Source: Lachnospiraceae bacterium (GTDB taxonomy: Bacteria; Bacillota; Clostridia; Lachnospirales; Lachnospiraceae). Taken from it: a stretch of 64,000 bases of DNA. Shown here in pieces: positions 12,613 through 46,302 of the stretch; within the stretch, counting starts at the first letter, position 1, and each line of letters starts with the position of its first letter. Both the position numbers and the translations under genes were made by a program. The stretch spans positions 35,165 through 99,164 of the forward strand of contig JAFWTY010000033.1 of the NCBI GenBank assembly GCA_017518735.1. The letters run 5' to 3'. A model generated the notes under the pieces. That model did no database searches and was not told the origin of the DNA. It saw nothing but the letters and a program-made list of their open reading frames with translations.

Positions 12613-12623
12613 CTTTGCCCTCT

Positions 12624-13631
12624 CTAACAACGCACACGTAAAAACTGCGCTATTCCGTGTAATTTTATTTCATAATTGCCTGCAGGAATGAAAACACAAT
12701 CCCCCTTAAAAAGATCCAGTGCTTCATCTCCCGCATGAAGTACCCCGCATCCGTCGGTACAAAGAAGTACCTGGAATGTTTCGGACAATGCATTCATTTT
12801 CGTATATTCTCTGCATCGCTCCGTATTCATCAGTAGGCGTTCCGTTTGAAAGACTCTGCATCTGCAAAGAATCTCGGATGCGCTGCCTCTTGTATATTTC
12901 AAAACTCGAATCGGCTGTCTCGGATCCTCGGAAGATTTATAATTCATCACCTCAAGAGCCTTATCGATATGTAAGGGGCGTTCCTTTCCCTCTTTGTCTT
13001 TTCGATCATAATCATATAACCGGTATGTGATATCCGAGTTTTCCTGCACTTCGGCAAGAAGGCAACCGGATCCGATTCCGTGAACCGTTCCGGGAGCTAC
13101 AAAGAATACCTGATTCTTTTCAATCGGGACTTTTCGGATAAGACTTTCCAACTTCTTTTCCCGCAATGCGTTCACTACTTCTTCCCGGTCCGTATCCTTT
13201 CGAAAGCCGTAAATAATATTGCTATCCGGTTTTGCATCGAGGACATACCACATTTCCATCTTTCCCAAAGAATCCTCGTGAATACGTGCATATTCATCAT
13301 CCGGATGAACCTGAATGGAAAGATCCGACTTCGCATCGATGAGTTTGATCAAAATCGGAAGTTCGCCTTTTTCATTCGCATGTCGCCCAAGCATGTCAGG
13401 ATGATTCTTCAGCACTTCGGCAAGTGTCATTCCTTTATACACACCGGATGCAACCAAGGCCTCTCCTGACGGATGCGTGGAACACTCCCATGTTTCCGCA
13501 AGCGGTTCCATGTCAATGTTTTTGGAAAAATCATCATTGAGCCTGTTTCCGCCCCAAAGATAATCTTTTCCCGCAGGACTGAGCAGGAACGGTATTTCGT
13601 TTTTATTCCAGTTCGAATTTGTATTTGTCAT
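12624..13631 (-). CDS. manA: class I mannose-6-phosphate isomerase
   Basis: WECSTHPSG, IQVHPDD and VHGIGSG motifs. The ORF-track start at 13667 is a TTG. The ATG at 13631 (MTNTN...) has the AAGGAA SD. Overlaps the manC 3' end. Confidence 0.85.
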   Translation of the reverse strand: MTNTNSNWNKNEIPFLLSPAGKDYLWGGNRLNDDFSKNIDMEPLAETWECSTHPSGEALVASGVYKGMTLAEVLKNHPDMLGRHANEKGELPILIKLIDAKSDLSIQVHPDDEYARIHEDSLGKMEMWYVLDAKPDSNIIYGFRKDTDREEVVNALREKKLESLIRKVPIEKNQVFFVAPGTVHGIGSGCLLAEVQENSDITYRLYDYDRKDKEGKERPLHIDKALEVMNYKSSEDPRQPIRVLKYTRGSASEILCRCRVFQTERLLMNTERCREYTKMNALSETFQVLLCTDGCGVLHAGDEALDLFKGDCVFIPAGNYEIKLHGIAQFLRVRC

Positions 13632-14916
13632 GAATTGTGATTTCCTTGCCAATCTGCACTTCAACAATCTTCAACGTTGTATCCGCAATAACGGTATGGC
13701 GGCACCCTGTCTGCATTGTGATTACATCACCAACGGTAACATTCTGCTTCATTCCATCTACAACTGTAGTTCCTTTGCCTTCGATGACAACCCATACTTC
13801 ATCTCGCAACTGATGAGAATGATAATTCATGCTGTGTCCCGGATTTAATGTTACCAGAATCGTCATGCTTTCGTCTTCCACATTCAACACACGGAAACTT
13901 CCCCAAGACTTCTCCGCAAACATAACCTGTCCGACGATATCATCCACATAAGGTTTGATGTAACTTGATTCTTTTTTGTCCGAAACCAGAATTCCTTCCG
14001 GGCTTGCCGTAATAATTACATCATGCATTCCCATTGCAAGTATCGGCACGTTCAGTTCATTGATGATATGAACGTTTTCACATTTATCGTTCATAACTCC
14101 TTTTCCCATCACATGATCTTCGATAGATTCCGTAAGGGTATTCCAGGTTCCGAGATCCTTCCACACACCCCGGAAACGCATGACTGCAATGCGGTCTTCC
14201 TTTTCCGCAACCGCATAATCAAAACTGATTCTTTCCAAATCCGAATAACGTTCAAACAAATCGCGGTAATCGCGAAATGCAATCAGTTCATGTGCCTTCT
14301 TTAAAAGATATCCAAGACGGAAAGCAAACACTCCGCCATTCCACAATGCACCTTTTTGAATATATTCTTCTGCGGTTTTTTCATCCGGCTTTTCCTTGAA
14401 CATTGCTACTTCACTTACCGGATTGGAATCTTTGGGAATAATGTATCCGTACTTTGCGGAAGGATATGTCGGTTCCATTCCGAGAAGACAAAGGTTTGCT
14501 TCCGAAGTCTGTGCCAGTTTGCACAGTTCAATCAAGGCTTTAAAATAATCATCCTCCACATAAGGATCGACCGGGCAGATCACAACAGCTTCATCATCCG
14601 GGACACGACACTCATCATGGAGATACGCACAGGCAAGTGCAATTGCGGGAAACGTGTCCTTCCTGTCCGGCTCAACGCTGACATTCACCTTGTTTCCAAG
14701 CTGATTCTCAATCTCGGACAACTGCGTTTTGGAAGTGGCAATCGTGATATTAACGTTCTCTCCGGCCTTTTTTAACCCACGATACATTCTCTGAACCATG
14801 GATTCATATTCGCCGTTTTCATCTTTAAAAAAACGAATAAACTGTTTGGATCTTACATCATTCGATAACGGCCACAAGCGTTTTCCGCTTCCTCCGGATA
14901 ATAAAACAACATTCAT
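13603..14916 (-). CDS. manC: mannose-1-phosphate guanylyltransferase with C-terminal cupin domain
   Basis: MNVVLLSGGSGKRLWPLS...KQF nucleotidyltransferase P-loop. C-terminal cupin (GHSMNYHSHQLRDEVWVVIEG). ATGA overlap with the upstream gene. Confidence 0.85.
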   Translation of the reverse strand: MNVVLLSGGSGKRLWPLSNDVRSKQFIRFFKDENGEYESMVQRMYRGLKKAGENVNITIATSKTQLSEIENQLGNKVNVSVEPDRKDTFPAIALACAYLHDECRVPDDEAVVICPVDPYVEDDYFKALIELCKLAQTSEANLCLLGMEPTYPSAKYGYIIPKDSNPVSEVAMFKEKPDEKTAEEYIQKGALWNGGVFAFRLGYLLKKAHELIAFRDYRDLFERYSDLERISFDYAVAEKEDRIAVMRFRGVWKDLGTWNTLTESIEDHVMGKGVMNDKCENVHIINELNVPILAMGMHDVIITASPEGILVSDKKESSYIKPYVDDIVGQVMFAEKSWGSFRVLNVEDESMTILVTLNPGHSMNYHSHQLRDEVWVVIEGKGTTVVDGMKQNVTVGDVITMQTGCRHTVIADTTLKIVEVQIGKEITIHDKYKFELE

Positions 14917-16097: not shown

Positions 16098-16114
16098 ATT
16101 ACAAACAGTTCAGC

Positions 16115-17002
16115 CTATTGTTCCGTCTCGTTTATTAATTGAATTAATCCGTCCACATACATCTCGCGACCTTTTTGATTCAAATGCATACCGTCACGTA
16201 AAATGTCAGCCTCTTCATAATTCGTCTCATCTACACCCATACCGGAGAGATTATCCAAAAAGAAAGCATACTCATATTCCTCCGACACTCTCTTCATGGC
16301 ATCACGATAATCCGCTATTGTTCCTCCGCCGAAATCTTTTTCAAATCCGGTGATGTCCTCTTTTTCCGTAATGTCCTTGCAAAATGTAATGGAAGAAAGG
16401 ATAATCCTGGCGTTCGGACAAATTTTGTGAATGCGTTCTATCGAAGAACGAAGCCCGCCTTCATAGGTGCTTTCATCATAAGGATCTTCGCCTTTTATGG
16501 TCTCCCCCTCCGCATAATCATTCATTCCGTAATGGATTACCACGTAGTCCATTGCCTTGTAATCCAAAAACTTCATAACAAGAATTTTGGCTTCCACATC
16601 ACTGGGACAATTAATGACTTTCTCACGATTTCTGGTAATCGACGAAACATCTTTTGTTTCCATTATTTTTGTAAGGTTCGCGAGACAAAGAAGAGAAAGA
16701 AAGTCATCTTCTTCGTACGTCTTCTTTACACTTCCGGCGCATGTTCCGCCGAACGCTTCGTTATAGGTAACATATCCTGTGCGTTCATTTAGAATCTGCG
16801 TTACATCCTCACCTTCGAATCCGTAATCAATGTTGCTGTCTCCCAGAAAAAGGATTTGCTTTTTCTCCTGAAAAATAGCAGGGAAAACAGGCTTGGGCTT
16901 CTTCATTCCGGCAATACAAAGCAAAGCAACCATAGCGGCGAATCCAACTACAAATGTAATACAGTTTATTATTCTGTTTTTTGTCGAATACTGTTCGTCC
17001 AT
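16115..17002 (-). CDS. membrane-anchored SGNH/GDSL hydrolase (candidate extracytoplasmic O-acetyl transferase/esterase partner)
   Basis: N-terminal TM. All four SGNH blocks are intact: LFLGDSNI, FGGTCAG, HYGMNDY, DGMHLNQKG. Confidence 0.8.
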   Translation of the reverse strand: MDEQYSTKNRIINCITFVVGFAAMVALLCIAGMKKPKPVFPAIFQEKKQILFLGDSNIDYGFEGEDVTQILNERTGYVTYNEAFGGTCAGSVKKTYEEDDFLSLLCLANLTKIMETKDVSSITRNREKVINCPSDVEAKILVMKFLDYKAMDYVVIHYGMNDYAEGETIKGEDPYDESTYEGGLRSSIERIHKICPNARIILSSITFCKDITEKEDITGFEKDFGGGTIADYRDAMKRVSEEYEYAFFLDNLSGMGVDETNYEEADILRDGMHLNQKGREMYVDGLIQLINETEQ

Positions 17003-17008
17003 GTTGTC

Positions 17009-18223
17009 TTAACCCTGCATAAAGTAGGTAACTCCTTCAAGGAGTCTGATGAAAAAGTAAAAACCGCAATACATATGATATCCGAGCACTGCTCCCATTA
17101 CAGCCGCGTATAAGAGCCGAACGGTGAATGTTCCTTTTAAGAACGTACTGCTTCGAAGGTTATTCATAAAGTAAATAATGCTTACCACGAACAGTGCAAA
17201 CAAACAGAAATCATAACCCCATGCGAAATTACCATCTAGGATTCTGTCACCTGTTTCCTTCAAAAACAGAAGTTCAACCGCACCCACGCTCCACATTGAC
17301 CACGCCAGGATGAACGGGGTGTGTCTCGGAAAGTGTTTTTTGCGAAAATCCGAAATCGTCTGCTTACAAACCGGCACAATATTAAACAGAAAAATGAGTA
17401 CCGGAAAAAGCGCCGATAAAATCATTGTAAGATAAGGACGTTCCGCACGAAGATATACGTTATATCCAAACTCTATAACCACTCCGTTTCCGGTTTCTTC
17501 TCCGAAAAGAATCAGTTCCTGATACAGTACGATTGCCACAGAAGGAATCACGGATGCCGCAAGCAACAGGACTCTGCGAAGTGGAACTTTCCGAATCAGA
17601 TCGATAATCAGACCGACAAATGCAACCGGTGCGAGTACCAGAAGAAAACTCGTCTTGGTTGCGGTGGAAAGTGTCAAAAATACAACAAATAAAATCCATG
17701 ACTTCCAATCCGTTTTCCTTTTTTCCGAATGTGCATACCTTAAATAAAACACAAGTGAAAGAAGTGCAAAAAACTTCATCACGGTATAAGTGGAATTGTG
17801 CCAGATGGAAGGAGACTGATATCCGATATACCGTTCATAATGTACTGCCTTAACAAAAGCAGGCATTACAATGTTTGCTGCAACCGCCGTTCCCAGTGCG
17901 GACCATCTTCCAAACACAAATTTGCGAATGGCAAAATAAGTCGCAATCATGGTTCCGCCGGCAGCAATCGAAAGAAAAATCGCCACCCACACTTCATACA
18001 AAGGAAGACGCATGAAAAGACGGTAGATTACAGCCGTCAGAGAATAACCGGTTCCGTCCGCTGCCATCTTTAAATGAGCAGGAAGATCCGATTCAAAATA
18101 CTGGCCCTCTGCCCTGGCTGCCTGCATGTAGAACAAATAGGTGCAGGCAAGTGTATAACCGCCGAATACCAGGCCGGCAATGATAGAAAAAAGGATGTTT
18201 GATTTTCCGTTTTCCTTTTTCAT
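17009..18223 (-). CDS. polytopic membrane protein (GT-C-like or flippase candidate) translationally coupled to the ArnC-like GT2
   Basis: 404 aa, about 11 hydrophobic segments, FESD motif after TM1, ATGA overlap with 18220..19179. Confidence 0.55.
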   Translation of the reverse strand: MKKENGKSNILFSIIAGLVFGGYTLACTYLFYMQAARAEGQYFESDLPAHLKMAADGTGYSLTAVIYRLFMRLPLYEVWVAIFLSIAAGGTMIATYFAIRKFVFGRWSALGTAVAANIVMPAFVKAVHYERYIGYQSPSIWHNSTYTVMKFFALLSLVFYLRYAHSEKRKTDWKSWILFVVFLTLSTATKTSFLLVLAPVAFVGLIIDLIRKVPLRRVLLLAASVIPSVAIVLYQELILFGEETGNGVVIEFGYNVYLRAERPYLTMILSALFPVLIFLFNIVPVCKQTISDFRKKHFPRHTPFILAWSMWSVGAVELLFLKETGDRILDGNFAWGYDFCLFALFVVSIIYFMNNLRSSTFLKGTFTVRLLYAAVMGAVLGYHMYCGFYFFIRLLEGVTYFMQG

Positions 18224-19179
18224 TCTTCGTCCATTCCTTTATCTTTTGCCGGAATCAACTCACGAACAACATACTGCGGAGAATTATTCATGCAAAGATA
18301 CATTCTACCTACATACTCGCCAATCATTCCGAGCATCAGCATAATCATTCCGCCAATAAATACCAGCACGCTCATGAGAGCAGAGAATCCGGCCTGTACT
18401 TCAACCAGAATAATCTTCTTTATAATCGTATAGATACCATACAGGAAACCGCCGCATGCGCAAATGGTTCCGATCAGGGTCGCAATTCGAAGCGGTTTTA
18501 CCGAAAAGGCTGTAAAGCCGTTAAACCAAAGCGATAAGAGTTTGCTTAAAGTATATCCCGATTTTCCGACTTCTCTTGCGCGATGGTTCACTTCCACATT
18601 TGCTATGTTTTTGGTTGCTCGTAACACCAGACCGATAACGTAGGAGTACGGCTGCTCATAGCGGATCATATCGTCAACGATAAAACGTTTTGCTGCAAAG
18701 TAACTGGAAATGTAGAGTTCCTTCGGTTTATCCAGCATAATCCTGGTCATCATTTCATTTACTTTGCTACCCATGTTACGAAATCCGCTATGCTGCTTTT
18801 TTCCGTAGTATGCATAGCAGACATCATATCCTTCTTTCAGTTTGTCTAACAGCTTTCCAACCTCGTTTGCCGGTGTCTGTCCGTCATCATCGAGACAAAC
18901 CACAATATCACCGTCCGACGCACGTAGTCCGGCCATCAGTGCCGCATGCTGTCCAAAGTTTCTTGCCAGACCGATACCGGTAATAAACGGATACTTCTCA
19001 CAAAGAATACGAATGGTATTCATGGTTTGATCCGGAGAAGAATCATTCACGAGAATAATCTCATGTGTATACTCCGGCATGGTTTTCATTGTTTCATTGA
19101 TTTCTTCCACAACGGCTTCTATTGTTTTTTCCGAACGATAACACGGAATCACAAATGAAACTTTGCTGTTCATCTTCAT
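18220..19179 (-). CDS. ArnC-like GT2 polyprenyl-phosphate (amino)sugar transferase
   Basis: VSFVIPCYRSE, VNDSSPDQT, ARNFGQHAALMAG, LDDDGQTP. Two C-terminal TMs ending in IGEYVGRMY. Confidence 0.8.
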   Translation of the reverse strand: MKMNSKVSFVIPCYRSEKTIEAVVEEINETMKTMPEYTHEIILVNDSSPDQTMNTIRILCEKYPFITGIGLARNFGQHAALMAGLRASDGDIVVCLDDDGQTPANEVGKLLDKLKEGYDVCYAYYGKKQHSGFRNMGSKVNEMMTRIMLDKPKELYISSYFAAKRFIVDDMIRYEQPYSYVIGLVLRATKNIANVEVNHRAREVGKSGYTLSKLLSLWFNGFTAFSVKPLRIATLIGTICACGGFLYGIYTIIKKIILVEVQAGFSALMSVLVFIGGMIMLMLGMIGEYVGRMYLCMNNSPQYVVRELIPAKDKGMDEE

Positions 19180-19210
19180 TTCACTCTCCCTTTTCGTTTT
19201 CCTGCTTTGT

Positions 19211-19747
19211 TTACATTTCAGGATTTATCACTGCCATCAGTACAATATCTCTGTACGTTCCATTCACATATACATCACCATGAAGCAACGCTTCTCTCAC
19301 AAAACCGGCATTCTCATAACTCTTGATTGCCGCAACATTATCGGCATACACGCGTAAGAAAACACGGTGAAGATGCATTTTTTCAAATGCATATTGAACC
19401 ATCATCTTAGCCACTCTGCTTCCCACTTTTTTCCCTCTCGCTGAAGCTTCTCCGATGAAGATTCCGTATTCCGCTTTATGATGCACCGGATCGATATCTC
19501 TGTAGTAAACGCTTCCAACAGGCTGATATTCGTTGTTTTCATCCGGAATACAAATGATGAACTGTTTTGCCCTTCCGGCTTCCACCACACCTTTCAGCCA
19601 CTTCATATGGCTCTCCGGTGTGAACAAATTCTGATCGATAAAGTTTAAACGCACCGCATCACTGTTCCTCCAGCGAACGATATTCTCCGTATCCGCTTCA
19701 TCGATTTCTCTTAATAATATTCCGTTTTCCGTAATCTGTTCCTTCAT
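19211..19747 (-). CDS. GNAT family N-acetyltransferase (WecD/PseH-like sugar N-acetyltransferase candidate)
   Basis: Trimmed to the ATG at 19747 (ATGA overlap with the upstream stop). LREIDEADTENIVRWRN...AEYGIFIGE..ARGKKVG...NVAAIKSYENAGF is a GNAT fold signature. Confidence 0.75.
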   Translation of the reverse strand: MKEQITENGILLREIDEADTENIVRWRNSDAVRLNFIDQNLFTPESHMKWLKGVVEAGRAKQFIICIPDENNEYQPVGSVYYRDIDPVHHKAEYGIFIGEASARGKKVGSRVAKMMVQYAFEKMHLHRVFLRVYADNVAAIKSYENAGFVREALLHGDVYVNGTYRDIVLMAVINPEM

Positions 19748-21543
19748 TCCTGCTCCACTGTTCGAATTGCCAAAATCCATATTTCTTTTCCGGAAGGTAA
19801 TATTACCACGTCCTCTTGCGAAACCGTAACCGATATTCCCTGTCCCTCGTAGTATTCTTTGATCCAATCCGTTCCGTAATAATCATTTTCCACATAATAG
19901 GCGTTTTCATCCGTTCGTACGGAAACCCAGGTTTTGCTTCCGCCTCTGTTTTTTAAATAGTCTTCGTGAATCGGACTTTTTACAATCCATCCCCCCAAAC
20001 GGCAGAAATTGTTTTTTTCATATGTGGAAGAAGCAAACATTTTTTCTGCGTAATTGGAGAAAGATGATGTTTTTAAGTAATACGTATTCTGCGGATGTTC
20101 CGTAAAATATTCGTTCATTGCAGTCCAGTCCGCATCCCTTTCTTCCGTTTCCCGAAGAAGTAGTTTCGTATGATAAAACCGGGTTCCGGCAATCACAAGC
20201 AATGCAATCAATACAGACGTTGTGCCGACTCTGCAAATAATCTTTCCGCTCTTCGTTATGCCGGTATCATCGTTTTTCTCTTCAGGAGTTTTTTCCGGTT
20301 TCTTCCGATTGACTCCCGAGAAAAAGGTTCCCGCAAGGAACGCTATAATCAGCAGATACAAACCATATGAAACGCGTTCCGGAAATCTTCCGCGATATAT
20401 AAAATATCCGGAAAATGCCATCATATATAAAAATGCAACAACGCTGAAAACCAGTTCTTTATAGCTTTTTTTCCATATCAGAACAAGTAGCAATAGCAAA
20501 GTTCCAAGGAATAAGATCCACGCTGCCGGCCATAACGGATTCTCAAAAATCTTGGGAATCAGTTTTTTGATGATATACTTAATTGCCCATATTTTTGTTA
20601 ACGGCAACGCATTGTCATTTTCCCAGTATTTCCTGCTAAGTTCAGCCAGGCCTTCCATGCGGTCCGCATTATAGTCCTCAAAAAGACCTAAATCCCATTC
20701 ACTTAGAGGATACATGTCCGACTTACTGTAACCGAGTTCTTCATATTCCGCCTCTGCTCTTTCAAATGAAGGCAGATGATAATAATCATATATCTGAATA
20801 CGTTCCGAATGAATCTCCCGAAACGCTTTCCATTCATCGGAAGAATATGCCAGTTTTTCCGCTCCGAAAACAGCTAAAACCGAAACCGATATAATTAAAA
20901 ACAAAATGATCAATGACTTCTTTTTGCTTCGAAATCCCTGATATAAAAGCGCCAGCCCAAATACGGGAAGCACCATAAGAAACGCTTCCTGACGCAATAA
21001 CAGGCACAATACAATAGAACAGGTAATCACCACATAATCTGCAATCAGTTCGTTTTTTTTCGAAGTACGCAGTGTTGTCAGCCAAAAGATGCCAACCGCT
21101 CCGACAACTGCAGCCAGTATCGTATACTGATGAAGAACCAAGTATTGAAAATCCAAAACCAGTAACAATACTCCGGTTGCAACAACTCCTAAAACACGTT
21201 TCCATGTTTGTATCTCTTTGCTAAGATGGCATACTCTGACAAGAACCAGGAAATAGGCCAGAATGTGAATCAAACAAAGAAACAAATCATACCAGGGAAC
21301 ATTGCCGTTCAGTGCATACAGAGATTTCAACAGAAATCCCAGTAAAAACATCCCGTTTACAATGTGGGATTCCGGAAATCCGCTGATATCTCCGCTAAGC
21401 AGTGCTTTGATCATTACATCATCATTTGTTGTAAAACGCGGTCCGTAAAAAACAAGCGCAACAACCGCAGTCACGATGCAAAAAAGCAAGGCTGTAATAA
21501 GTGGAGCCATGTCGGGTTTTTCACGGTTTTTAAACAGTGCCAT
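19744..21543 (-). CDS. large polytopic membrane protein with C-terminal soluble domain (GT-C-like candidate)
   Basis: 599 aa. TTNDDVMIKAL acidic motif right after TM1. About 14 hydrophobic segments plus a soluble tail of about 150 aa. Confidence 0.6.
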   Translation of the reverse strand: MALFKNREKPDMAPLITALLFCIVTAVVALVFYGPRFTTNDDVMIKALLSGDISGFPESHIVNGMFLLGFLLKSLYALNGNVPWYDLFLCLIHILAYFLVLVRVCHLSKEIQTWKRVLGVVATGVLLLVLDFQYLVLHQYTILAAVVGAVGIFWLTTLRTSKKNELIADYVVITCSIVLCLLLRQEAFLMVLPVFGLALLYQGFRSKKKSLIILFLIISVSVLAVFGAEKLAYSSDEWKAFREIHSERIQIYDYYHLPSFERAEAEYEELGYSKSDMYPLSEWDLGLFEDYNADRMEGLAELSRKYWENDNALPLTKIWAIKYIIKKLIPKIFENPLWPAAWILFLGTLLLLLVLIWKKSYKELVFSVVAFLYMMAFSGYFIYRGRFPERVSYGLYLLIIAFLAGTFFSGVNRKKPEKTPEEKNDDTGITKSGKIICRVGTTSVLIALLVIAGTRFYHTKLLLRETEERDADWTAMNEYFTEHPQNTYYLKTSSFSNYAEKMFASSTYEKNNFCRLGGWIVKSPIHEDYLKNRGGSKTWVSVRTDENAYYVENDYYGTDWIKEYYEGQGISVTVSQEDVVILPSGKEIWILAIRTVEQE

Positions 21544-22663
21544 AGAACTCCTTCACGCACTTTATAATGTATTCCGTCTTTTCTTTTTCCAGATTGTAGT
21601 AAAGCGGCAGTCTGACAAGTCTCTCACTTTCCCGTGTCGTATACCTGTCTTCTCCTGCAAATCTTCCGAACTTTAATCCGGCAGGTGCAGAGTGAAGCGG
21701 TACATAGTGGAAAACAGCAAGAATGTCTTTCTCTTTTAAGAACGCAATCAGTTTTGTTCTCTCTTCCAAATCCGCTGCCTTAAAATAAAACATATGCGCA
21801 TTATGCGTACAATTCTCAGGGATGAAAGGAAGCTCGATTTTGCCTGCATCGGCAAGATCTTTCAATCCCTCGTAATATGTATTCCAAGTATTCATACGGT
21901 TTTCCGTAATCTCATTCGCAAGTTCGAGCTGCGCATACAGATATGCTGCATTCAATTCACTGGGAAGATAGGACGATCCCTTATCTACCCATGTATACTT
22001 ATCTATCTGACCGCGGAAGAACTTCGCACGGTTCGTTCCTTTTTCACGAATAATCTCGGCAGGCTCAATATTCTCCTCATCACGAATCAGCAATGCTCCG
22101 CCTTCTCCTATGGAAAAGTTCTTCGTTTCATGGAAGGAGAAGCATCCGAATTCTCCAAAGGTTCCGAGTGCTTTTCCCTTATAGGTCGACATGATACCCT
22201 GCGCAGCATCCTCAATCACCTTGAGATTGTGTTTTTGAGCAATGGCCATAATGGTATCCATTTCGCAACCGACTCCGGCATAATGAACCGGAACAATCGC
22301 CTTCGTTTTTTCGGTGATAGCCGCTTCAATCAAATTTTCATCGATGTTCATGGTATCCGGTCTGATATCCACAAAAACCGCAGTCGCACCGCGAAGCACA
22401 AAAGCATCCGCTGTCGATACAAACGTATAGGACGGCATGATTACCTCATCGCCCGGTTTGATATCGGCAAGGATTGCGGCAAGTTCCGTAGCATGGGTAC
22501 AGGATGTCGTAAGCAACGCTTTTTTCGTACCTGTCTTTTCTTCCAGCCACTGATTGCACTTAGCGGTAAACTCACCGTCTCCGCAAATCTTCTGGTTATT
22601 TACGGCCTTAATGATGTATTCTGTTTCTTTCCCGGTAAAGGGTGGTACATTAAATCGAATCAT
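21530..22663 (-). CDS. wecE: dTDP-4-amino-4,6-dideoxyhexose (Fuc4N-type) transaminase
   Basis: Collinear by eye with E. coli WecE from the first residues: MIRFNVPPFTG.E..YI......K.CGDG.F...C..WLE; PGDEVIMPSYTFVSTA.AFVLRGA; FSFHETKN; DKYTW.D.GSSY. Confidence 0.85.
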   Translation of the reverse strand: MIRFNVPPFTGKETEYIIKAVNNQKICGDGEFTAKCNQWLEEKTGTKKALLTTSCTHATELAAILADIKPGDEVIMPSYTFVSTADAFVLRGATAVFVDIRPDTMNIDENLIEAAITEKTKAIVPVHYAGVGCEMDTIMAIAQKHNLKVIEDAAQGIMSTYKGKALGTFGEFGCFSFHETKNFSIGEGGALLIRDEENIEPAEIIREKGTNRAKFFRGQIDKYTWVDKGSSYLPSELNAAYLYAQLELANEITENRMNTWNTYYEGLKDLADAGKIELPFIPENCTHNAHMFYFKAADLEERTKLIAFLKEKDILAVFHYVPLHSAPAGLKFGRFAGEDRYTTRESERLVRLPLYYNLEKEKTEYIIKCVKEFYGTV

Positions 22664-23600
22664 GGTGTCCTCCGGATTTTAAGTTTTTTGTTCTGTTTCG
22701 AATAATAAATCTCGGTCTTCCTTTTACTTCTTCATATATTCTTCCAAGATAATGTCCGATAATTCCAAGGCTGATCATAATACAGCCTCCGATAATCAGA
22801 AGAAGGAGAATGACCGTCGTAAATCCTTCTACTGCAATATCTAGGAAATAATTCACAAGGGTTTGAATTCCCAGGATCAGGGAAAAAACAATCATAACAG
22901 CTCCGACAATTGCAATCAGTTTCAGCGGTGCCGTAGTAAAGGAAGTCGTATTTGTAATGGCATACCTTACCAGTCCGCCAAAAGACCATTTGCTTTTTCC
23001 GTGAGCTCTTTCCTGTACATCGTATTCAACCTGCGTGGAACGGAAGCCGACCCAGAATGATAACGCACGGAAGAAGGTGTTGCTCTCATTCAGGCTAAGC
23101 AGGGCATCTACCACTTTGCGATCCAGTAATTTGAAATCCGAAGTGGCATTCATATCCATCTTCATCAAACTGCTCATGATTCCGTAGAAGATTCCGGAAA
23201 ACATTTTATAAAAAATGTTTTCTCTTCCTCTCGAAGACTTGATTCCTTCTATGACCTCATATCCCTCTTCCCAAAGTCTGTACATTTCCACAAGTGTTTT
23301 GGGCGGATGCTGCAGATCACAGTCGATTACGGAAACACAGTCTCCGCTTGCCGCGGAAAGGCCGGCAAAAATAGCTGCCTCTTTTCCGAAGTTTCTGGAA
23401 AACTGAATTCCTTTAATCCTTTCATCTTCTTCCGACAGTTTTTCAATCATGTCAAAAGTTCCGTCTTTTGATCCGTCGGAAACAAAGACCAGTTCATAAG
23501 GAATCTGCTCTTCCCTTAAAATATCGCCTATGGTTTTTGCGGTATTCACGATGTTTTCCTCCTCGTTATAAGAAGGAATTACAATTGACATAGTCCCCAT
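22650..23600 (-). CDS. GtrB-like GT2 polyprenyl-phosphate glycosyltransferase
   Basis: SD AAAGGAGAG. IPSYNEEENI, VSDGSKDGT, FSRNFGKEAAIFAGL, DCDLQHPP. Two C-terminal TMs ending in IGHYLGRIY. Confidence 0.85.
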   Translation of the reverse strand: MGTMSIVIPSYNEEENIVNTAKTIGDILREEQIPYELVFVSDGSKDGTFDMIEKLSEEDERIKGIQFSRNFGKEAAIFAGLSAASGDCVSVIDCDLQHPPKTLVEMYRLWEEGYEVIEGIKSSRGRENIFYKMFSGIFYGIMSSLMKMDMNATSDFKLLDRKVVDALLSLNESNTFFRALSFWVGFRSTQVEYDVQERAHGKSKWSFGGLVRYAITNTTSFTTAPLKLIAIVGAVMIVFSLILGIQTLVNYFLDIAVEGFTTVILLLLIIGGCIMISLGIIGHYLGRIYEEVKGRPRFIIRNRTKNLKSGGHHDSI

Positions 23601-23611
23601 TGTTCTCTCCT

Positions 23612-25174
23612 TTATTCCCGGGTATCTCTGCCTTCGGGCGGCTCTGTTTTAATATACATAATACCGTCCACTATTTTTATGCTGTCTTTTGCAGGGAAGG
23701 AATCCATCTCCCTGTATGCATCGGAATTGTAAATATCTATAATCGTTTCACTGTCCGTAATTACGTTGAGGCTGAAATTGAGATAGTGTTCCATGAATGC
23801 CTGGTACTGTTCTCCTTTATAAATCAGCATATCTCCGGTGGTCCCGGAAATACGTTCCGTTACATCACCTGTAATATCGGTAACCGGGTACTTTTCTTCA
23901 TCCAGCACACCGATCATCATCACGGGGATACCGGTATAATATCCTTCCGTCTGTTCAATTCGGTCAGCCAGTCTGACACAGTATGCATACGTTTTTTCAT
24001 AGCGCTCATTCATGTTGAAATACGCAATATTGTCGGCAAGAATAAACTGCCAGATTAACAGTACTCCGCCTAGAAGACCTGCCGCACCTATGAAAAACGA
24101 AGGTCTTGCTTTACGAGTTTCCCCTTTCGGCATTCGGTCAATCAGACAAAGCGCAAAAATGGGGAAGAGCCCCCATTGCATTCTCATCAGCAAATGATAA
24201 TAAGCCTCCGAGGAAATCAGGATAATCACATTGGTTCCAATCGGAATGATTGCTACAAATACAACAACAAGAAGTGATAAATACCACTTCTTAATTGCTT
24301 TCGTATGCACAAATAAGGTTACCAGGCAAAGCAAGGAAACCCCGAATAATAATACCACAGCAATATAAGAAAATCCATTTGTAAGGAAGATTCTGCCGTT
24401 TCGAAGGAATCCGAAAAAGTCCTTGATTGCTCCCACAATCATTCCCGGCATGGAGGATACGGAGACTTTTCCCATGTTATTGATTCCCTGATAGGTATCC
24501 AGCACTTTTCCCTGTGCCTTTAAACAGATTTGGAGAATCACATAATACAGAATTCCCCCGAGTGCTCCCATCGCAAAATACTTCACTCCCCGGATTAGGA
24601 TAGCCTTTATTTTTTCATTCTGAGCACACATCAGAATCAGATCGAAGAGACAAAGCAGGATGGTCGCTGCCAGATACGCCTGATAGGTTCCGAGACTTAA
24701 ACTGAGTGCAATCGCCCCAAGTGCCCATCCGGTTTTATTCATCTTTTTCGTAAGATAAACCGCAAGTACGGCAAAGAAGAATCCAAGGAAGTAACCGTCT
24801 GCCGTATACATATAAGCATAGGTTGCCGTAACCGCAGGGAATGTCACGAGTGTAGCTGCGATTAATCCCATTACCGTCTTGCTCTTGATTTCCAGAATCC
24901 GAACAAGGACAACTGCTGCCAATGCAAAATAGAGAATCGACAATAGCCCGTTGATCCACTTTAAATCAAAGAAGGACGAAATACCGCAGGCTACCGTCAG
25001 AAACCATCTGCCGCTTGTGACCATGTTCTGATCAAAGTAGAAACTGGTCATTGCATCCGAATTTGGAAAGTTATGTATCATAACCGGAAAATGTGTCAGT
25101 ATTCCGACTACAATAGTAGTCCAAAACGGAACAGTTATATTCGGTTGTTTCATTTTTTCAAGAAACTTTGACAT
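23612..25174 (-). CDS. GtrII-type (Glucos_trans_II-like) polytopic glucosyltransferase
   Basis: N-terminus ...FWTTIVVGILTHFPVMIHNFPNSDAMTSFYFDQNMVTSGRW matches the serotype-converting Gtr glucosyltransferase family pattern. Lies directly downstream of a GtrB homolog. Confidence 0.7.
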   Translation of the reverse strand: MSKFLEKMKQPNITVPFWTTIVVGILTHFPVMIHNFPNSDAMTSFYFDQNMVTSGRWFLTVACGISSFFDLKWINGLLSILYFALAAVVLVRILEIKSKTVMGLIAATLVTFPAVTATYAYMYTADGYFLGFFFAVLAVYLTKKMNKTGWALGAIALSLSLGTYQAYLAATILLCLFDLILMCAQNEKIKAILIRGVKYFAMGALGGILYYVILQICLKAQGKVLDTYQGINNMGKVSVSSMPGMIVGAIKDFFGFLRNGRIFLTNGFSYIAVVLLFGVSLLCLVTLFVHTKAIKKWYLSLLVVVFVAIIPIGTNVIILISSEAYYHLLMRMQWGLFPIFALCLIDRMPKGETRKARPSFFIGAAGLLGGVLLIWQFILADNIAYFNMNERYEKTYAYCVRLADRIEQTEGYYTGIPVMMIGVLDEEKYPVTDITGDVTERISGTTGDMLIYKGEQYQAFMEHYLNFSLNVITDSETIIDIYNSDAYREMDSFPAKDSIKIVDGIMYIKTEPPEGRDTRE

Positions 25175-25189
25175 ATCTCTTTAAACTTT

Positions 25190-26116
25190 CTATTTCTTCT
25201 CTCGAATAATATATATGGGACGACCTTTGATCTCATTGTATGCCTTGGCAAGATACATACCGATGATTCCGCTTACAAACAACTGCAATCCGGCAAAGAA
25301 TGTAATCATGCAGGCAAGTGAAGGCCAACCGATTACAGGATCTCCGAATATCAACGCCCTGATAAACAGAAAGATTAACAAAACCAGTGCGACAAAGCAG
25401 AAGAACAGTCCCACAAACGAAGCCCATTCAAGAGGCGCTGTGGAAAATGCAACCATTCCTTCCAGGGAATAACGGAATAAGGAAAAGAATGACCACTTTG
25501 TCTTTCCCGCTACTCTTTCTCTGTTTTCAAAATCAATCCACTTGGTCTGAAATCCGACCCAGCCGAAAATACCCTTGGAAAAGCGATGGTACTCTTTCAT
25601 GGAGAGGATAGCATCCACCATAACACGCTTCATGAAACGATAATCTCTTGCGCCGTCCATCATATTTAACTTCGCCATTTTGTTCATGATCCGGTAAAAC
25701 GCTCTTGCGAATGCGGAACGGATAATCGGCTCACCTTTCCGGTCGATTCTTCTGGTAGCGGCACAGTCATATCCTTCCTCTTTTACCGCCCTGTACATTT
25801 CCGGCAGAAGCTCGGGAGGATCCTGCAAATCCGCATCCATTATCACAACATAATCTCCTGTTGCTTCCGAAAGTCCTGCGAACATAGCAGCTTCTTTTCC
25901 GAAGTTTCTGGAAAAAGAAACATAATGAACCTTTTCGTCTTTTGACGCCAGTTCACGCATTACTTCCAGTGTTCTATCTCTGCTTCCGTCATCAACAAAA
26001 AGGTATTCAAATTCCAATTCCGTCATGGTAGAAACCGTTTTTTCGGTTTCTTCGTAAAATAACGGAAGCGCCTCCTCTTCGTTATAACAAGGAACTATTA
26101 TCGTACATTTTTCCAT
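25190..26116 (-). CDS. gtrB: bactoprenol glucosyltransferase-like GT2
   Basis: VPCYNEEEALP, VDDGSRDRT, FSRNFGKEAAMFAGL, DADLQDPP. Two C-terminal TMs ending in IGMYLAKAY. Confidence 0.85.
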   Translation of the reverse strand: MEKCTIIVPCYNEEEALPLFYEETEKTVSTMTELEFEYLFVDDGSRDRTLEVMRELASKDEKVHYVSFSRNFGKEAAMFAGLSEATGDYVVIMDADLQDPPELLPEMYRAVKEEGYDCAATRRIDRKGEPIIRSAFARAFYRIMNKMAKLNMMDGARDYRFMKRVMVDAILSMKEYHRFSKGIFGWVGFQTKWIDFENRERVAGKTKWSFFSLFRYSLEGMVAFSTAPLEWASFVGLFFCFVALVLLIFLFIRALIFGDPVIGWPSLACMITFFAGLQLFVSGIIGMYLAKAYNEIKGRPIYIIREKK

Positions 26117-27163: not shown

Positions 27164-27172
27164 TTCCTGATG

Positions 27173-28921
27173 TTATCTTTCTCGAACAATTTTCTTGTTT
27201 TCTACACGGTATACCGCATCACATTTTTCAATGGTCTGAAGTCTGTGTGCAATAATGATCAAGGTTTTGTTTCCGTGCAGATGATTGATAGAATCAACGA
27301 TAGCCTTTTCTGTTTCGTTATCCAAAGCTGCCGTTGCCTCGTCCATTACAAGCACTTCCGGATCTTCATACAGTGCTCTCGCGATACCGATTCTCTGTCT
27401 TTGTCCACCGGAAATACGAACACCTCTTTCTCCGATTCCTGTATCCAGTCCCTCGGGAAGTCCCTTTACAAATTCATCCAGTTGTGCTTCCTTTAACACT
27501 TCCCAAACTCTCTCATCGCTGATTTCATCTTTGGGAATACCGAAAGCCACGTTTCCGCGGATCGTATCATCCAGCATAAAAATACTCTGCGGAATATAGC
27601 CGACGTTTTTCAGCCACTTACGATAGTTTCCTTCGGCAAAAATATCCTGACCGTCCACAGTAATGGTACCTTCCTGTGTCTTTAAAAGCCCAAGCAGAAT
27701 ATCTACCACCGTTGACTTTCCGGCACCTGTGGTACCTACGATTCCGACGCTTGTTCCGATAGGAATCGTCAAATCCGCATGTTCAAAAATATTCACATCC
27801 GGCATAGTCGGATAGTGGAAGGAAATATTCGAAAGGACAATTTCCTTCTTTGCCGGAAGTTTTTCTTTCGGGACTTCCATAAAAGATACGTCCACATTTT
27901 TCTCATCGATTTCATCCTGAAGATTATCCGAAACACCCATGAAGAACGGCTCGAAGTATGCAATATTGTTCATCTGGTTGTTGATTCTGTTTGCACAAGG
28001 CATAAGACGCATTGCACCGAGAACAAATACCGAAACCGTTGACATCATTTCCGTTGCATCACCACCGGTAAGGAAGATGTAAAGGAAGTATCCGATAATA
28101 CCAGCTATGCACACAACCTCAATAATCAGTCTCGGAATATTGTTGAACAGGGTATATTTCTGAACCGCATCCACATAGCCGTGACCGCATTTTTCATATT
28201 CGTGAACAAAGTAGTTTTCTCTGCCTGTAATTTTTACTTCTTTAATTCCCATTACTGTCTGGGAAATATGTTTAAACAACGCACTGTAATAATCCTGGTT
28301 GTCTTTTCCGGCTTTCTTCATAACAGGCTTAATGAACAGTTTGATTAAGAAAAGCGTCAACAGGATCAATACGGCAAGTACCGCTGTCATCAACGGATTC
28401 TGCCAGAACAAAAATGCCGCAATGCAAAGGAACACGATACTTTCGGAAACAAGTGTGAGCAGAGACTGAATCAGTGCATACATGTTGTTAACATCCGAAG
28501 TAATGGAACGCTGGATAACCGCGGTATCAGCCTCCAGGAAAAACTCATAATCCCTTCGGATATAGTTTTTCATCATCCTCTCGGATGTACGGAACTGATT
28601 GTTGAAAATGAAACGATATAGAATCTTGTATTCCAAATGAATGAAAATGTTTTTAATAATAAATACGACTACAAGCGTAATCATAATAAATATGCCGAAT
28701 GCCTTAACGGACGGAAAATGGAACAAATTGTAGACAAAGGACAAATATTTATTATTCAAAATGGAATCAGGGGTTAATACAATCTTCACAACCGGAAGAA
28801 TTGCTGCCACTGAAAAAGCCTCCAGAATCGCGCCGAACAGCATGATAACAACAAGTCCGACCATCTGCATTTTTTGCTTGCGATCCAAAAGGACCATCAG
28901 TTTTTTCAGAATCTTAATCAT
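27173..28921 (-). CDS. ABC exporter, fused permease-ATPase (MsbA/PglK-like; candidate lipid-linked glycan flippase)
   Basis: 582 aa. Six-TM N-terminal half. Walker A GTTGAGKST, signature ISGGQRQRI, Walker B LVMDEATAALD. Confidence 0.85.
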   Translation of the reverse strand: MIKILKKLMVLLDRKQKMQMVGLVVIMLFGAILEAFSVAAILPVVKIVLTPDSILNNKYLSFVYNLFHFPSVKAFGIFIMITLVVVFIIKNIFIHLEYKILYRFIFNNQFRTSERMMKNYIRRDYEFFLEADTAVIQRSITSDVNNMYALIQSLLTLVSESIVFLCIAAFLFWQNPLMTAVLAVLILLTLFLIKLFIKPVMKKAGKDNQDYYSALFKHISQTVMGIKEVKITGRENYFVHEYEKCGHGYVDAVQKYTLFNNIPRLIIEVVCIAGIIGYFLYIFLTGGDATEMMSTVSVFVLGAMRLMPCANRINNQMNNIAYFEPFFMGVSDNLQDEIDEKNVDVSFMEVPKEKLPAKKEIVLSNISFHYPTMPDVNIFEHADLTIPIGTSVGIVGTTGAGKSTVVDILLGLLKTQEGTITVDGQDIFAEGNYRKWLKNVGYIPQSIFMLDDTIRGNVAFGIPKDEISDERVWEVLKEAQLDEFVKGLPEGLDTGIGERGVRISGGQRQRIGIARALYEDPEVLVMDEATAALDNETEKAIVDSINHLHGNKTLIIIAHRLQTIEKCDAVYRVENKKIVRER

Positions 28922-46269: not shown

Positions 46270-46302
46270 TCCGTCCTCTTTATTCATCAAGGATAATAAA
46301 AT

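Follow-up and report, generated by a model that had tools for sequence, protein, structure and literature searches.

Three-component extracytoplasmic glycosylation is an established type of mechanism, and its best-described enzymes offer several points of comparison for the locus considered here. Among the polyprenyl-phosphate transferases of the ArnC/GtrB family, the known substrates are UDP-L-Ara4FN for ArnC and UDP-glucose for GtrB, both of which are UDP-sugars; to our knowledge, no dTDP-dependent member has been characterized. In the biosynthesis of acylated amino sugars, PseH acts on a UDP-linked 4-amino-4,6-dideoxyhexose, which it acetylates at N4. Laboratory E. coli K-12 strains naturally produce dTDP-Fuc4NAc. 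The gene combination discussed below has a genetic precedent in wxc region 3 of the Gram-negative Xanthomonas. In Gram-positive bacteria, systems that pair a GtrB-type GT2 with a GT-C protein glycosylate Ser/Thr-rich protein regions (PMC12041528).

Here, we describe a locus from a gut Lachnospiraceae bacterium, contained in a 64,000-nucleotide stretch of DNA analyzed as a whole (the window). The block at 17009-22663 probably encodes those functions of a three-component extracytoplasmic glycosylation system that are specific to the sugar, and it is set within a surface-glycan locus of ~50 kb. A preliminary description had suggested that such a decoration of a Gram-positive wall polymer would be new. 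This needs narrowing in view of the known mechanism type and the Xanthomonas precedent, but the predicted sugar donor and transferases, as identified by computation, were previously undescribed.

Organization of the Locus

The features referred to in the text are as follows; TM599, TM404, TM600, and GT2_b are working names coined in this analysis.

8703-10505, minus strand: TM600, 600-aa polytopic protein (no Pfam match)
10505-11656, minus strand: AT3 acyltransferase (PF01757, 81 bits)
11674-12630, minus strand: fourth GtrB-type GT2 (PF00535, C-terminal TM helices)
12624-13667, minus strand: PMI (PMI_typeI)
13603-14916, minus strand: ManC (PF00483 with cupin domain)
16115..17002, minus strand: membrane-anchored SGNH/GDSL protein (PF13472, 47.7 bits; one N-terminal TM segment)
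17009..18223, minus strand: TM404, 404-aa membrane protein with a predicted minimal GT-C fold (AF2 model and Foldseek)
18220..19179, minus strand: ArnC/GtrB-type polyprenyl-phosphate GT2, 319 aa (PF00535; ArnC model)
19211..19747, minus strand: GNAT N-acetyltransferase, PseH-like, 178 aa (PF13302, TIGR03585)
19744..21543, minus strand: TM599, 599-aa polytopic protein with a predicted GT-C fold (AF2 model and Foldseek)
21530..22663, minus strand: WecE, 377 aa (TIGR02379, NF008687)
22650..23600, minus strand: PgfS/GtrB-like polyprenyl-phosphate GT2, 316 aa (281 bits to the PgfS model, its best match, with a cut-off of 500 that is not reached; 169 bits to the ArnC model; two C-terminal TM helices)
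23612..25174, minus strand: GT-C glucosyltransferase-like protein of the GtrII family, paired with the PgfS-like GT2 (PF14264, 174.6 bits)
25190..26116, minus strand: GT2_b, third GtrB-type GT2, on the far side of GtrII (PF00535, 124 bits)
27173..28921, minus strand: PglK-like ABC half-transporter, candidate flippase for a lipid-linked glycan (ABC_membrane and ABC_tran)
43133..44074, minus strand: RmlD, dTDP-4-dehydrorhamnose reductase (TIGR01214, 298.5 bits; cut-off 224)
44407..46290, minus strand: DUF6020 polytopic protein (PF19484, 79 bits)
46303-47496: PseC-like aminotransferase (470 bits; cut-off 423.5)

The six genes from the PgfS-like GT2 down to TM404, previously recognized as a block, were all recovered as minus-strand ORFs with ATG starts. 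In this order, their junctions measure -14, -14, -4, +31, and -4 nt. The reported overlap of 4-14 nt thus holds for four junctions, including the last, where the start of TM404 overlaps the stop of the 319-aa GT2 by 4 nt; the GNAT and this GT2 are instead separated by a 31-nt spacer, the only non-overlapping junction of the five.

WecE, GNAT, and Precursor Supply

The collinearity of the WecE with the E. coli protein, pointed out in the preliminary description, is evident from alignments with E. coli WecE (4piw, 566 bits) and with the solved enterobacterial enzyme (PDB 6blg), to which it is 67% identical over its full length (371 columns, one 1-residue gap). It scores 649 bits against TIGR02379 (cut-off 434.85) and 647 bits against NF008687 (cut-off 375), and it retains the lysine motif HETK. 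Judged by family, this is a true WecE, a dTDP-4-keto-6-deoxy-D-glucose 4-aminotransferase. Its predicted product is dTDP-4-amino-4,6-dideoxy-D-galactose, with the stereochemistry taken from the identity to the solved enzyme. The gene is probably of horizontal origin, as had been asked earlier, but the event would be old, with orthologues in at least 80 Lachnospiraceae loci at 74-87% identity. A Pfam scan covering all window ORFs of 150 aa or more found no RmlA, RmlB, or RmlC, in line with the earlier remark that RmlA and RmlB are missing and only RmlD is present. The presence of RmlD indicates that the organism makes dTDP-4-keto-6-deoxyglucose.

The GNAT had been likened to WecD, an identity that is ruled out by its profile matches (PF13302, 66.5 bits; TIGR03585 for PseH, 100.4 bits, above the cut-off of 93.1), which mark it as PseH/RimL-type. 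The 4-amino group of the nucleotide sugar is its predicted target. This GNAT adjoins an ArnC-clade GT2 in 24 loci and is fused with it in seven loci, which reflect at least two independent fusion events; across protein sequences, GNAT::GT2 fusions form more than 110 distinct 90%-identity clusters.

The ArnC-Like GT2

The 319-aa GT2, which carries two C-terminal TM helices, is best matched by the ArnC model NF007986 (183 bits, below the cut-off of 529), with PgfS at 153 bits. At full length, TM region included, it matches ArnC structures at 154 bits and GtrB at 128 bits. D97-x-D99-x-Q101, R134, S138, and R202 align with ArnC D100/D102/Q104, R137, S141, and R205; at the position of ArnC R128, however, it has a Tyr, a difference that counts against the explanation favored here, as do the UDP-linked donors of characterized ArnC and GtrB and the UDP-linked substrate of PseH, the family to which the GNAT scores. 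Its sequence is that of a full-length ArnC/GtrB-type polyprenyl-phosphate transferase, and gene fusion and synteny point to a dTDP-sugar donor, making it a predicted Und-P 4-acetamido-4,6-dideoxyhexose synthase. D-Fuc4NAc shares the C2-C4 configuration of L-Ara4FN and has an extra methyl on C5; action of an ArnC-like enzyme on D-Fuc4NAc is therefore chemically plausible.

The window encodes four GtrB-type GT2s. In a tree of 98 such proteins, a single clade (SH-aLRT 98) unites all GNAT-linked, GNAT-fused, and ATP-grasp/EamA-linked GT2s and includes the 319-aa enzyme, while the GtrII-linked GT2s form a separate clade. The PgfS-like GT2 belongs to the latter, in which GtrII adjoins 33 of the 38 members. 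The earlier view that two GT2s bracket one chemistry is thus not upheld; the PgfS-like GT2 and GtrII probably make up a module of their own.

The GT-C Proteins

TM599 (~11 TM segments) has no Pfam or NCBIfam match, and TM404 (~9 TM segments) has no Pfam match. Both yielded confident AF2 models (pLDDT 87.8 and pTM 0.90 for TM599; pLDDT 81.7 and pTM 0.87 for TM404), and all of their significant PDB matches are GT-C enzymes, at modest Foldseek TM-scores of 0.38-0.55. For TM599, the top match is ArnT (5f15, E 2e-5, prob 1.0), followed by STT3, AftA, and DPY19; for TM404, the top matches are PglB, STT3, Pmt4, DPY19, and AftB. With ArnT and PglB in the lead, the GT-C-like nature ascribed to both proteins in the preliminary description is well supported. 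An N40-D41-D42 motif after TM1 is invariant in the TM599 family (34 homologues), as is D46 of the first loop in TM404. A distant relationship links TM599 to DUF6020 (hhalign 83%, E 8e-6), and their acidic first-loop motifs align. On the basis of these models, TM599 is a candidate GT-C glycosyltransferase of an uncatalogued family that would take its sugar from a lipid carrier, and TM404 is a candidate second transferase of GT-C fold.

Conservation and Neighboring Modules

The order WecE, TM599, GNAT, ArnC-like GT2, and DUF6020 or TM404 is found in ~40 of 80 Lachnospiraceae loci with varying surroundings. Since gene order recurs across ~80 genomes of the family, the arrangement is not due to chance. 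Kineothrix sp. MB12-C1 and Eisenbergiella porci are among the cultured carriers. TM599 sits between WecE and the GNAT in ~33 loci; it accompanies an ArnC-clade GT2 in 27 of 33 loci and occurs in 4 of the 16 loci lacking that GT2. The position after the GT2 is filled by TM404 in six related loci and in most others by a DUF6020 homologue (22 of 33 loci); here, DUF6020 lies 25 kb from the GNAT-GT2 pair, beside the PseC-like aminotransferase. Three contigs were retrieved by a GNAT::GT2 fusion protein rather than by WecE, and in all three a WecE orthologue (73-75% identity) precedes the fusion by two genes, with a TM599 homologue in between. In a sister architecture, an ATP-grasp gene replaces the GNAT, and WecE, the ATP-grasp gene, the GT2, and two half-size ArnE/F-like EamA proteins are encoded contiguously. 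In ~20 related loci, WecE lies beside GtrII, a PgfS-like GT2, AT3, and TM600, with neither a GNAT nor an ArnC-clade GT2 within 10 kb; linkage of WecE is thus not exclusive to the ArnC-clade GT2.

Several neighboring genes appear to form parallel modules for other sugars. The GtrII and PgfS-like GT2 pair is kept in ~30 loci; GT2_b, with two C-terminal TM helices, is 38% identical to the PgfS-like GT2, and its clade adjoins GtrII. The GT2 linked to ManC and PMI (11674..14916) forms its own clade in the tree and would belong to a mannose module. The SGNH/GDSL protein, which follows TM404 in L001, L002, L003, and L006, likely works together with the AT3 protein in O-acetylation, providing the esterase/transferase activity. 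In relatives, the AT3/TM600 pair lies directly upstream of WecE, and AcylT3-TM600-WecE is the most constant trio over type-A and type-B loci. The best single-stretch full-length PDB match of the ABC half-transporter is PglK/WlaB (313 bits, residues 5-581 versus 2-563); in relatives, it opens a conserved block, ABC-GtrA-AT3-TM600-WecE, in which the GtrA flippase (PF04138) scores 87.6 bits.

Proposed Pathway and Alternatives

In the proposed pathway, RmlA and RmlB from other parts of the genome would supply dTDP-4-keto-6-deoxy-D-glucose, which WecE would transaminate to the 4-amino sugar. The GNAT would then acetylate N4 to give dTDP-Fuc4NAc, pulling the unfavorable transamination forward, a role played by formylation in the Arn pathway. 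The ArnC-like GT2 would load the sugar onto undecaprenyl phosphate at the inner membrane face, and after outward flipping, TM599 and TM404 would pass it to an extracytoplasmic acceptor, for which the wall polysaccharide assembled by the other genes of the locus is the likeliest candidate. Synteny, the GNAT::GT2 fusions, the three reverse look-ups, the ATP-grasp/ArnE/F-like sister architecture, and the GT-C folds strongly favor the earlier proposal of an Und-P-loaded 4-acetamido-4,6-dideoxyhexose transferred outside the cell, with the donor as a prediction. The parallel to the Arn logic invoked for it is incomplete, as no deacylase and no recognizable Und-P-sugar flippase of the GtrA or ArnE/F type, such as relatives encode, is found in the window.

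It is unlikely that WecE and the GNAT instead provide dTDP-Fuc4NAc to a cytoplasmic (Leloir) glycosyltransferase for a repeat unit, as in ECA, leaving Glc or GlcNAc to the ArnC-like GT2 and the GT-C proteins in a merely crowded locus. The many soluble GT2/GT4 enzymes, large Bac_transf initiating transferase, and EpsG-type polymerase of the locus would suit such a route, the four GtrB-type GT2s make some adjacency expected, and the ~20 loci with WecE apart from a GNAT/ArnC-clade pair agree with it. Yet it leaves unexplained the abundant fusions, the look-ups that returned WecE in every case, the contiguous sister loci, and the distinctness of a GT2 clade tied to N-acylating enzymes from the GtrII-linked one; moreover, a profile scan of the window ORFs found no WecF-like GT56. 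The identity of the sugar could also differ: the GNAT and ArnC-like GT2 might act on a UDP-linked 4-amino sugar, e.g., 2-acetamido-4-amino-2,4,6-trideoxyhexose, which would come from the PseC-like aminotransferase or, in relatives, from a PglF/PglE-like pair, with WecE serving another step. Although the GNAT exceeds the PseH cut-off, characterized ArnC and GtrB use UDP-sugars, a PseC-like gene is present beside DUF6020 and adjoins the ArnC-clade GT2 in L013, L021, L058, and L080, and downstream genes in loci L081-L083 encode a second DegT enzyme together with a Polysacc_synt_2 dehydratase, this too seems improbable. The window contains no UDP-GlcNAc 4,6-dehydratase (PseB/PglF type, Polysacc_synt_2 as main match) or other Pse genes, the PseC-like gene is 27 kb from the GNAT and missing from most GNAT-GT2 loci, and nearly all of these loci have WecE no more than two genes from the GNAT.

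A further variant, which we consider quite improbable, keeps the proposed pathway but makes the acceptor a surface or membrane protein, which would be O- or N-glycosylated in the manner of the streptococcal Pgf and GtrB/PgtC2 systems. The Gram-positive systems acting on Ser/Thr-rich regions provide a precedent, and the leading structural matches of TM404 (PglB, STT3, Pmt4, and DPY19) are protein glycosyltransferases, but acceptor type is not readable from fold matches at TM-scores of 0.4-0.55, and TM599 matches ArnT best. A wall polysaccharide as acceptor agrees better with the predicted co-transcription of the module within a polysaccharide assembly locus that includes the initiating transferase, a Wzz-like protein, the EpsG polymerase, the PglK-like ABC protein, and RmlD.

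Organization of the Locus

A surface-glycan locus encoded on the minus strand fills nearly the whole window, from about 900 to 50,200, and is bordered by pyrimidine and cell-wall housekeeping genes. The six genes singled out in the preliminary description were confirmed, each with an ATG start, and are listed here with three further genes of the same locus.

22650-23600, minus strand: PgfS-like family 2 glycosyltransferase (GT2)
21530-22663, minus strand: WecE-type aminotransferase
19744-21543, minus strand: 599-residue polytopic protein (TM599)
19211-19747, minus strand: GNAT acetyltransferase
18220-19179, minus strand: ArnC-like GT2 (319 residues)
17009-18223, minus strand: 404-residue polytopic protein (TM404)
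23612-25174, minus strand: GtrII
10505-11656, minus strand: AT3 membrane acyltransferase
8703-10505, minus strand: 600-residue polytopic protein (TM600)

The six genes had been described as overlapping throughout; this does not hold for every junction (-14, -14, -4, +31, and -4 nt in the order of the list), as a short spacer separates the GNAT from the ArnC-like GT2. A scan of 8000-27500 for promoters and terminators delivered no operon boundaries and returned only weak intragenic matches.

Between 8703 and 50237, four GtrB-type polyprenyl-phosphate GT2s and at least nine polytopic membrane proteins are encoded in one locus, the latter comprising GtrII, DUF6020, DUF6056, and DUF6077 proteins as well as proteins of 599, 404, 600, 394, and 527 residues without a family. 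Extracytoplasmic decoration modules are stacked here with unusual density. The locus looks like a set of parallel modules, each with sugar-nucleotide genes and its own polyprenyl-phosphate GT2, and this arrangement itself favors the ArnC-like GT2 as the partner of WecE and the GNAT.

The Aminotransferase and Its Predicted Sugar Nucleotide

Over residues 1-374 of 377, WecE scores 649.1 bits against TIGR02379 (cut-off 434.85) and 647.3 bits against NF008687 (cut-off 375). Its collinearity with the E. coli protein, remarked upon earlier, was borne out (566 bits to E. coli 4piw). Alignment with 6blg, a solved dTDP-4-amino-4,6-dideoxygalactose transaminase, gives 67% identity over 371 columns with a single one-residue gap, and the PLP-binding lysine motif FSFHETKN is kept. 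For comparison, the best 80 WecE-containing loci were taken from a species-representative genome collection; nearly all belong to Lachnospiraceae, with WecE 73-87% identical, and the organism that the window comes from is itself placed in this family.

A horizontal origin of WecE had been raised as a question, and the answer depends on the age of the event. Recent transfer from Enterobacteria can be ruled out, as GC content is even along the whole window and orthologues 74-87% identical occur across Lachnospiraceae. An old transfer appears likely from the sequence comparison, since WecE, with its 67% identity to the enterobacterial enzyme, is the sole protein of the locus that passes an enterobacterial equivalog model. 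As noted previously, rmlA and rmlB are missing from the window, which was verified by scanning every ORF of at least 150 residues. RmlD is encoded in the window and implies a dTDP-rhamnose pathway in the organism.

The Acetyltransferase and the ArnC-Like GT2

The GNAT is an Acetyltransf_3 protein (PF13302, 66.5 bits) that also exceeds the cut-off of the PseH equivalog model (TIGR03585, 100.4 versus 93.1 bits). Among solved structures, it stands closest to AAC(6') and SpeG-type enzymes, and PseH follows lower in the list. A search of the window for a pseudaminic acid context (Polysacc_synt_2-type dehydratase, NeuB, and the cytidylyltransferase of that pathway) found none; thus, the protein is best called PseH-like rather than PseH. 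Because no WecD model or structure occurs among the 20 NCBIfam and 40 PDB matches listed for the GNAT, it can be ruled out as a WecD orthologue, and the WecD step would fall to a non-orthologous enzyme. One relative fused to a GT2 (P0028 from Kineothrix sp. MB12-C1, CP132957) bears the NCBI name 'UDP-4-amino-4,6-dideoxy-N-acetyl-beta-L-altrosamine N-acetyltransferase'. The name was probably carried over too broadly from the PseH model, given that a full GtrB-type GT2 is part of the protein and that WecE is its neighbor.

Residues 5-313 of the ArnC-like GT2 align with residues 8-318 of ArnC (154 bits), and residues 6-308 with residues 27-329 of GtrB (128 bits). Both C-terminal transmembrane helices lie inside these alignments (hydrophobic segments within 232-286). 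A cryo-EM study of ArnC assigned catalytic or phosphate-binding roles to the DxDxQ motif, R137, S141, and R205 (10.1101/2025.01.29.634835). The GT2 retains all of these: D97-D-D99-G-Q101, R134, S138, and R202 correspond to D100/D102/Q104, R137, S141, and R205 of ArnC, and a Tyr occupies the place of ArnC R128. At 182.7 bits against NF007986 (cut-off 529), the protein falls below the equivalog level of ArnC proper.

The Polytopic Proteins

TM599 and TM404 match no Pfam or NCBIfam model and stand outside the PMT, PMT_2, YfhO, GtrII, and ArnT families. Structure models were built from alignments of homologues in the related loci. The TM599 model (pLDDT 87.8, pTM 0.90) finds ArnT as its best PDB match (E 2e-5), followed by STT3, AftA, and DPY19; the TM404 model (pLDDT 81.7, pTM 0.87) finds PglB (E 4.5e-4), then STT3, Pmt4, DPY19, and AftB. 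The TM-scores of these matches are modest (0.38-0.55), so the assignment is to the GT-C fold and not to a family. GT-C enzymes carry their catalytic motif just after the first transmembrane helix. At this position, in the first extracytoplasmic loop, N40-D41-D42 is invariant among 34 homologues of TM599, and D46 among nine homologues of TM404. The YDAQDE motif of DUF6020, a family for which the literature search found no describing paper, aligns with the NDD motif of TM599. Kinship of TM600 and TM404 with TM599/DUF6020 is unsupported (hhalign probability 25% and 3%, respectively).

Probable Coupling of the Sugar Chemistry to a Lipid Carrier

The order WecE, TM599, GNAT, ArnC-like GT2, and then DUF6020 or TM404 is conserved in about 40 of the best 80 loci. 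This module is usually preceded by ABC, GtrA, AT3, and TM600, and the remainder of the locus varies. Seven loci have the two enzymes, GNAT and GT2, joined in one ORF of 487-511 residues whose N-terminal part is Acetyltransf_3 and whose C-terminal part is Glycos_transf_2. According to the GT2 tree, such fusions arose at least twice independently, and a protein search returned more than 110 distinct clusters of them. The association also holds in reverse: three contigs chosen by their fusion protein, not by WecE, all carry a WecE orthologue (73-75% identity) two genes upstream with a TM599 homologue between. On these three contigs (L081-L083), the fusion is followed by a protein of about 830-900 residues; a Wzy_C match in this protein is faint in L081, none is recorded in L082-L083, and it is weak in the WecE locus L020. 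Next come a PglF-like 4,6-dehydratase, a second DegT aminotransferase, a small PglC-like phosphoglycosyl transferase, and an ATP-grasp enzyme. This set is reminiscent of a bacillosamine-type pathway of initiation.

A tree of 98 GtrB-type GT2s resolves three groups, namely ManC-linked, PgfS-like, and ArnC-like. The ArnC-like clade (SH-aLRT 98) contains all GNAT-adjacent and GNAT-fused GT2s, as well as most of those from a sister architecture found elsewhere; a small separate clade holds three more WecE-adjacent GT2s (from loci L010, L076, and L078). In the sister architecture, WecE is followed by an ATP-grasp ligase, a GT2, and two half-size EamA proteins (cf. ArnE/ArnF), which suggests a lipid-linked 4-(aminoacyl)amido-4,6-dideoxyhexose. 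Examples are L041 (2789-8133), L064, L051, L079, L078, and L010, and an Orn/Lys/Arg-decarboxylase-family PLP enzyme often follows. The recurrence of an N-acylating enzyme of either kind with a 4-aminotransferase, a polyprenyl-phosphate GT2, and a small flippase points to an N-acylated amino sugar as the putative donor of the GT2; such a gene set would otherwise be hard to explain.

The preliminary description had coupled WecE and the GNAT to both neighboring lipid-carrier GT2s. Synteny, fusions, reverse look-up, tree, and sister architecture support this for the ArnC-like GT2. The reading of the two GT2s as a single system was rejected on the GT2 tree and the pairing with GtrII. In the PgfS-like clade, 33 of 38 members adjoin GtrII, and the PgfS-like GT2 of the window (22650-23600) is most simply the partner of the GtrII at 23612-25174. 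A third GtrB-type GT2 lies across GtrII from it, and the fourth adjoins ManC and PMI. About 20 related loci run GtrII, PgfS-like GT2, AT3, TM600, WecE, DUF6077, with no GNAT or ArnC-clade GT2 within 10 kb (L012, L016-L018, L030, L040, L054, and L070 among them). Within the same 10 kb, no other N-acyltransferase was found beside WecE, only DUF6077 and a protein of about 260 residues without assignment. The same pair, DUF6077 and a 259-residue protein, is present in the window at 921-2747.

GT2 and GT-C proteins are both encoded in the window. A flippase was sought there by tblastn with the GtrA and EamA proteins of relatives and by listing all small membrane ORFs, and none was found; it may lie elsewhere in the genome. 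Relatives have GtrA (PF04138, 87.6 bits) or EamA pairs within the same block. The window also encodes an ABC half-transporter (27173-28921) whose best full-length solved relative is PglK, a lipid-linked oligosaccharide flippase; in relatives, the PglK-like ABC gene stands first in the conserved block ABC-GtrA-AT3-TM600-WecE.

Comparison with Known Systems

The order of chemistry proposed for the module is that of the Arn pathway (ArnB, ArnA, ArnC, ArnD, ArnE/F, and ArnT), which places L-Ara4N on lipid A. The GT2 is related over its full length to ArnC and shares its catalytic residues, TM599 has ArnT as its best structural match, and the EamA pairs of relatives are ArnE/F-like. The analogy is also chemically apt, as the C2-C4 configuration is common to D-Fuc4N and L-Ara4N, the former having an additional methyl group at C5. 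However, the predicted precursor is a dTDP-6-deoxyhexose rather than a UDP-pentose, and the predicted acyl group is an acetyl from the GNAT rather than a formyl from ArnA. The Arn pathway includes the deacylase ArnD, whereas the module has no ArnD-like enzyme and its amine probably stays blocked. Furthermore, the acceptor lipid A is absent in this organism, the GT2 is far under the ArnC equivalog cut-off (183 versus 529 bits), and ArnT and the GT-C proteins have no detectable sequence family in common.

Three-component glycosylation is well established in both Gram-negative and Gram-positive bacteria (PMC11127046; PMC12041528). In Gram-positive systems, the C55-P-sugar formed by a GtrB-type GT2 is moved by a small flippase and then used outside the cell by a GT-C enzyme, whose target is a wall polymer, a teichoic acid, or a protein (PMC11127046; PMC12041528; see also PMC7389260). 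The systems compared here were GacI/GacL, SccN/SccM, CsbB-GtcA-YfhO, GtlA/GtlB, the lactococcal Csd pairs, and streptococcal Pgf. The GtrII/PgfS-like GT2 pair of the window fits this pattern directly. To our knowledge, and in agreement with the literature searched, the donors in such Gram-positive systems are Glc, GlcNAc, Gal, and GalNAc, derived from UDP-sugars. Unlike these systems, the WecE module contains its own aminotransferase and an acetyltransferase that is often fused to the GT2 in relatives, and its GT-C proteins (TM599 and TM404) fall outside the catalogued families.

For a side branch of acetamido-dideoxyhexose, the nearest genetic precedent is region 3 of the Xanthomonas wxc cluster (wxcK aminotransferase, wxcL GT2, wxcM, and the small membrane proteins wxcN/wxcO). 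In Xanthomonas campestris, the rhamnan O-antigen of wxcK and wxcN mutants lacked its FucNAc branches (PMC4878081). Judged by gene descriptions, the region shares with the module an aminotransferase, a GtrB-like GT2, and a small membrane protein, and its product is a dTDP-derived acetamido-dideoxyhexose side branch on a rhamnan; the lipid-linked intermediate is putative in both. The wxc sugar is the 3-acetamido isomer. The systems differ in the amino position (4-amino predicted for the module), and the wxc region belongs to a Gram-negative host with an O-antigen acceptor. The Fuc4NAc branch of enterobacterial common antigen (ECA; RmlA/B, WecE, WecD, and WecF) employs the same aminotransferase (67% identity), so the same nucleotide sugar is predicted. 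In ECA synthesis, however, the cytoplasmic GT56 enzyme WecF moves the sugar to lipid II, and WecD is another GNAT type; neither WecF nor a WecD-like protein was found at the module. A survey of monosaccharide pathways placed Fuc4NAc in Gammaproteobacteria only (PMC7725333).

Proposed Pathway

In the proposed pathway, WecE would install the 4-amino group, the nucleotide sugar would be N-acylated, the ArnC-like GT2 would load it onto undecaprenyl phosphate (Und-P), and a GT-C protein would transfer it outside the membrane. The acyl group would be acetyl where a GNAT is present, and of an aminoacyl type where an ATP-grasp enzyme stands instead. TM599/DUF6020, TM404, and TM600 are the candidate GT-C families that would use this donor. 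As no ArnD/NaxD-type deacylase is present, the acetyl group is probably retained on the sugar, and a role that depends on charge, as with Ara4N, is unlikely. The acceptor could be a wall polysaccharide, a teichoic acid, or a protein. The general claim that Lachnospiraceae decorate their surface with an Und-P-linked 4-acylamido-4,6-dideoxyhexose, made by a dTDP-dependent ArnC/GtrB-type enzyme and transferred by at least three new GT-C families, is one to which we give an even chance. The Arn-like reading of the preliminary description is accordingly partly supported and has been sharpened, on a computational basis.

Instead, the substrate of the GNAT and the GT2 may be a 4-amino sugar linked to UDP. 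Favoring this, the ArnC-clade GT2 adjoins a PseC-like aminotransferase in four loci, and the window itself encodes such an enzyme beside DUF6020 (46303-47496; 470 bits against a PseC cut-off of 423.5). For this reason, the UDP-linked sugar is kept as a rival to the dTDP-linked donor that the recurrent WecE neighbor would supply.

Implications

Three-component glycosylation is the main bacterial route for varying surface glycans after polymerization, and few sugars are known to travel on undecaprenyl phosphate. A full-text literature search brought up no account of an Und-P-linked 4-amino- or 4-acetamido-6-deoxyhexose (Fuc4NAc or viosamine), and nothing on this module, on Lachnospiraceae WecE, or on DUF6020/6056/6077/6044. 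If the proposal is true, a 4-acetamido-4,6-dideoxyhexose would join the short list of such sugars, a dTDP-sugar would for the first time be seen to feed an ArnC/GtrB-type enzyme, and the large unannotated membrane-protein families TM599, TM404, and DUF6020 would gain a function. Lachnospiraceae, which are among the most abundant gut commensals, would then bear a Fuc4NAc-type epitope otherwise tied to ECA. The module is widespread in Lachnospiraceae from human, mouse, and ruminant guts; thus, the epitope could matter for phage adsorption, cross-reactivity of ECA antibodies, and host immune recognition. The natural GNAT::GT2 fusions would also lend themselves directly to making the lipid-linked sugar by chemoenzymatic synthesis.

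Other Features of the Locus

A second amino-sugar block (44407-49691) combines the PseC-like aminotransferase with a divergent 311-residue nucleotidyltransferase, DUF6020, and DUF6056; PseB, PseG, PseI, and PseF were not found for it within the window. The AT3 membrane acyltransferase (10505-11656) and a membrane-anchored SGNH protein (16115-17002) are separate genes 4.5 kb apart, and as a pair they resemble an OafA/OatA-type O-acetyltransferase split into its two halves. Also within the locus are genes for a membrane protein with an FHA domain (41725-42279) and for a divergent PAP2 protein (DUF212; 40119-40589). Two GH25 muramidases (2751-5966 and 40619-41704) flank the locus, one of them a protein of 1071 residues with Big_2 and choline-binding-like repeats.
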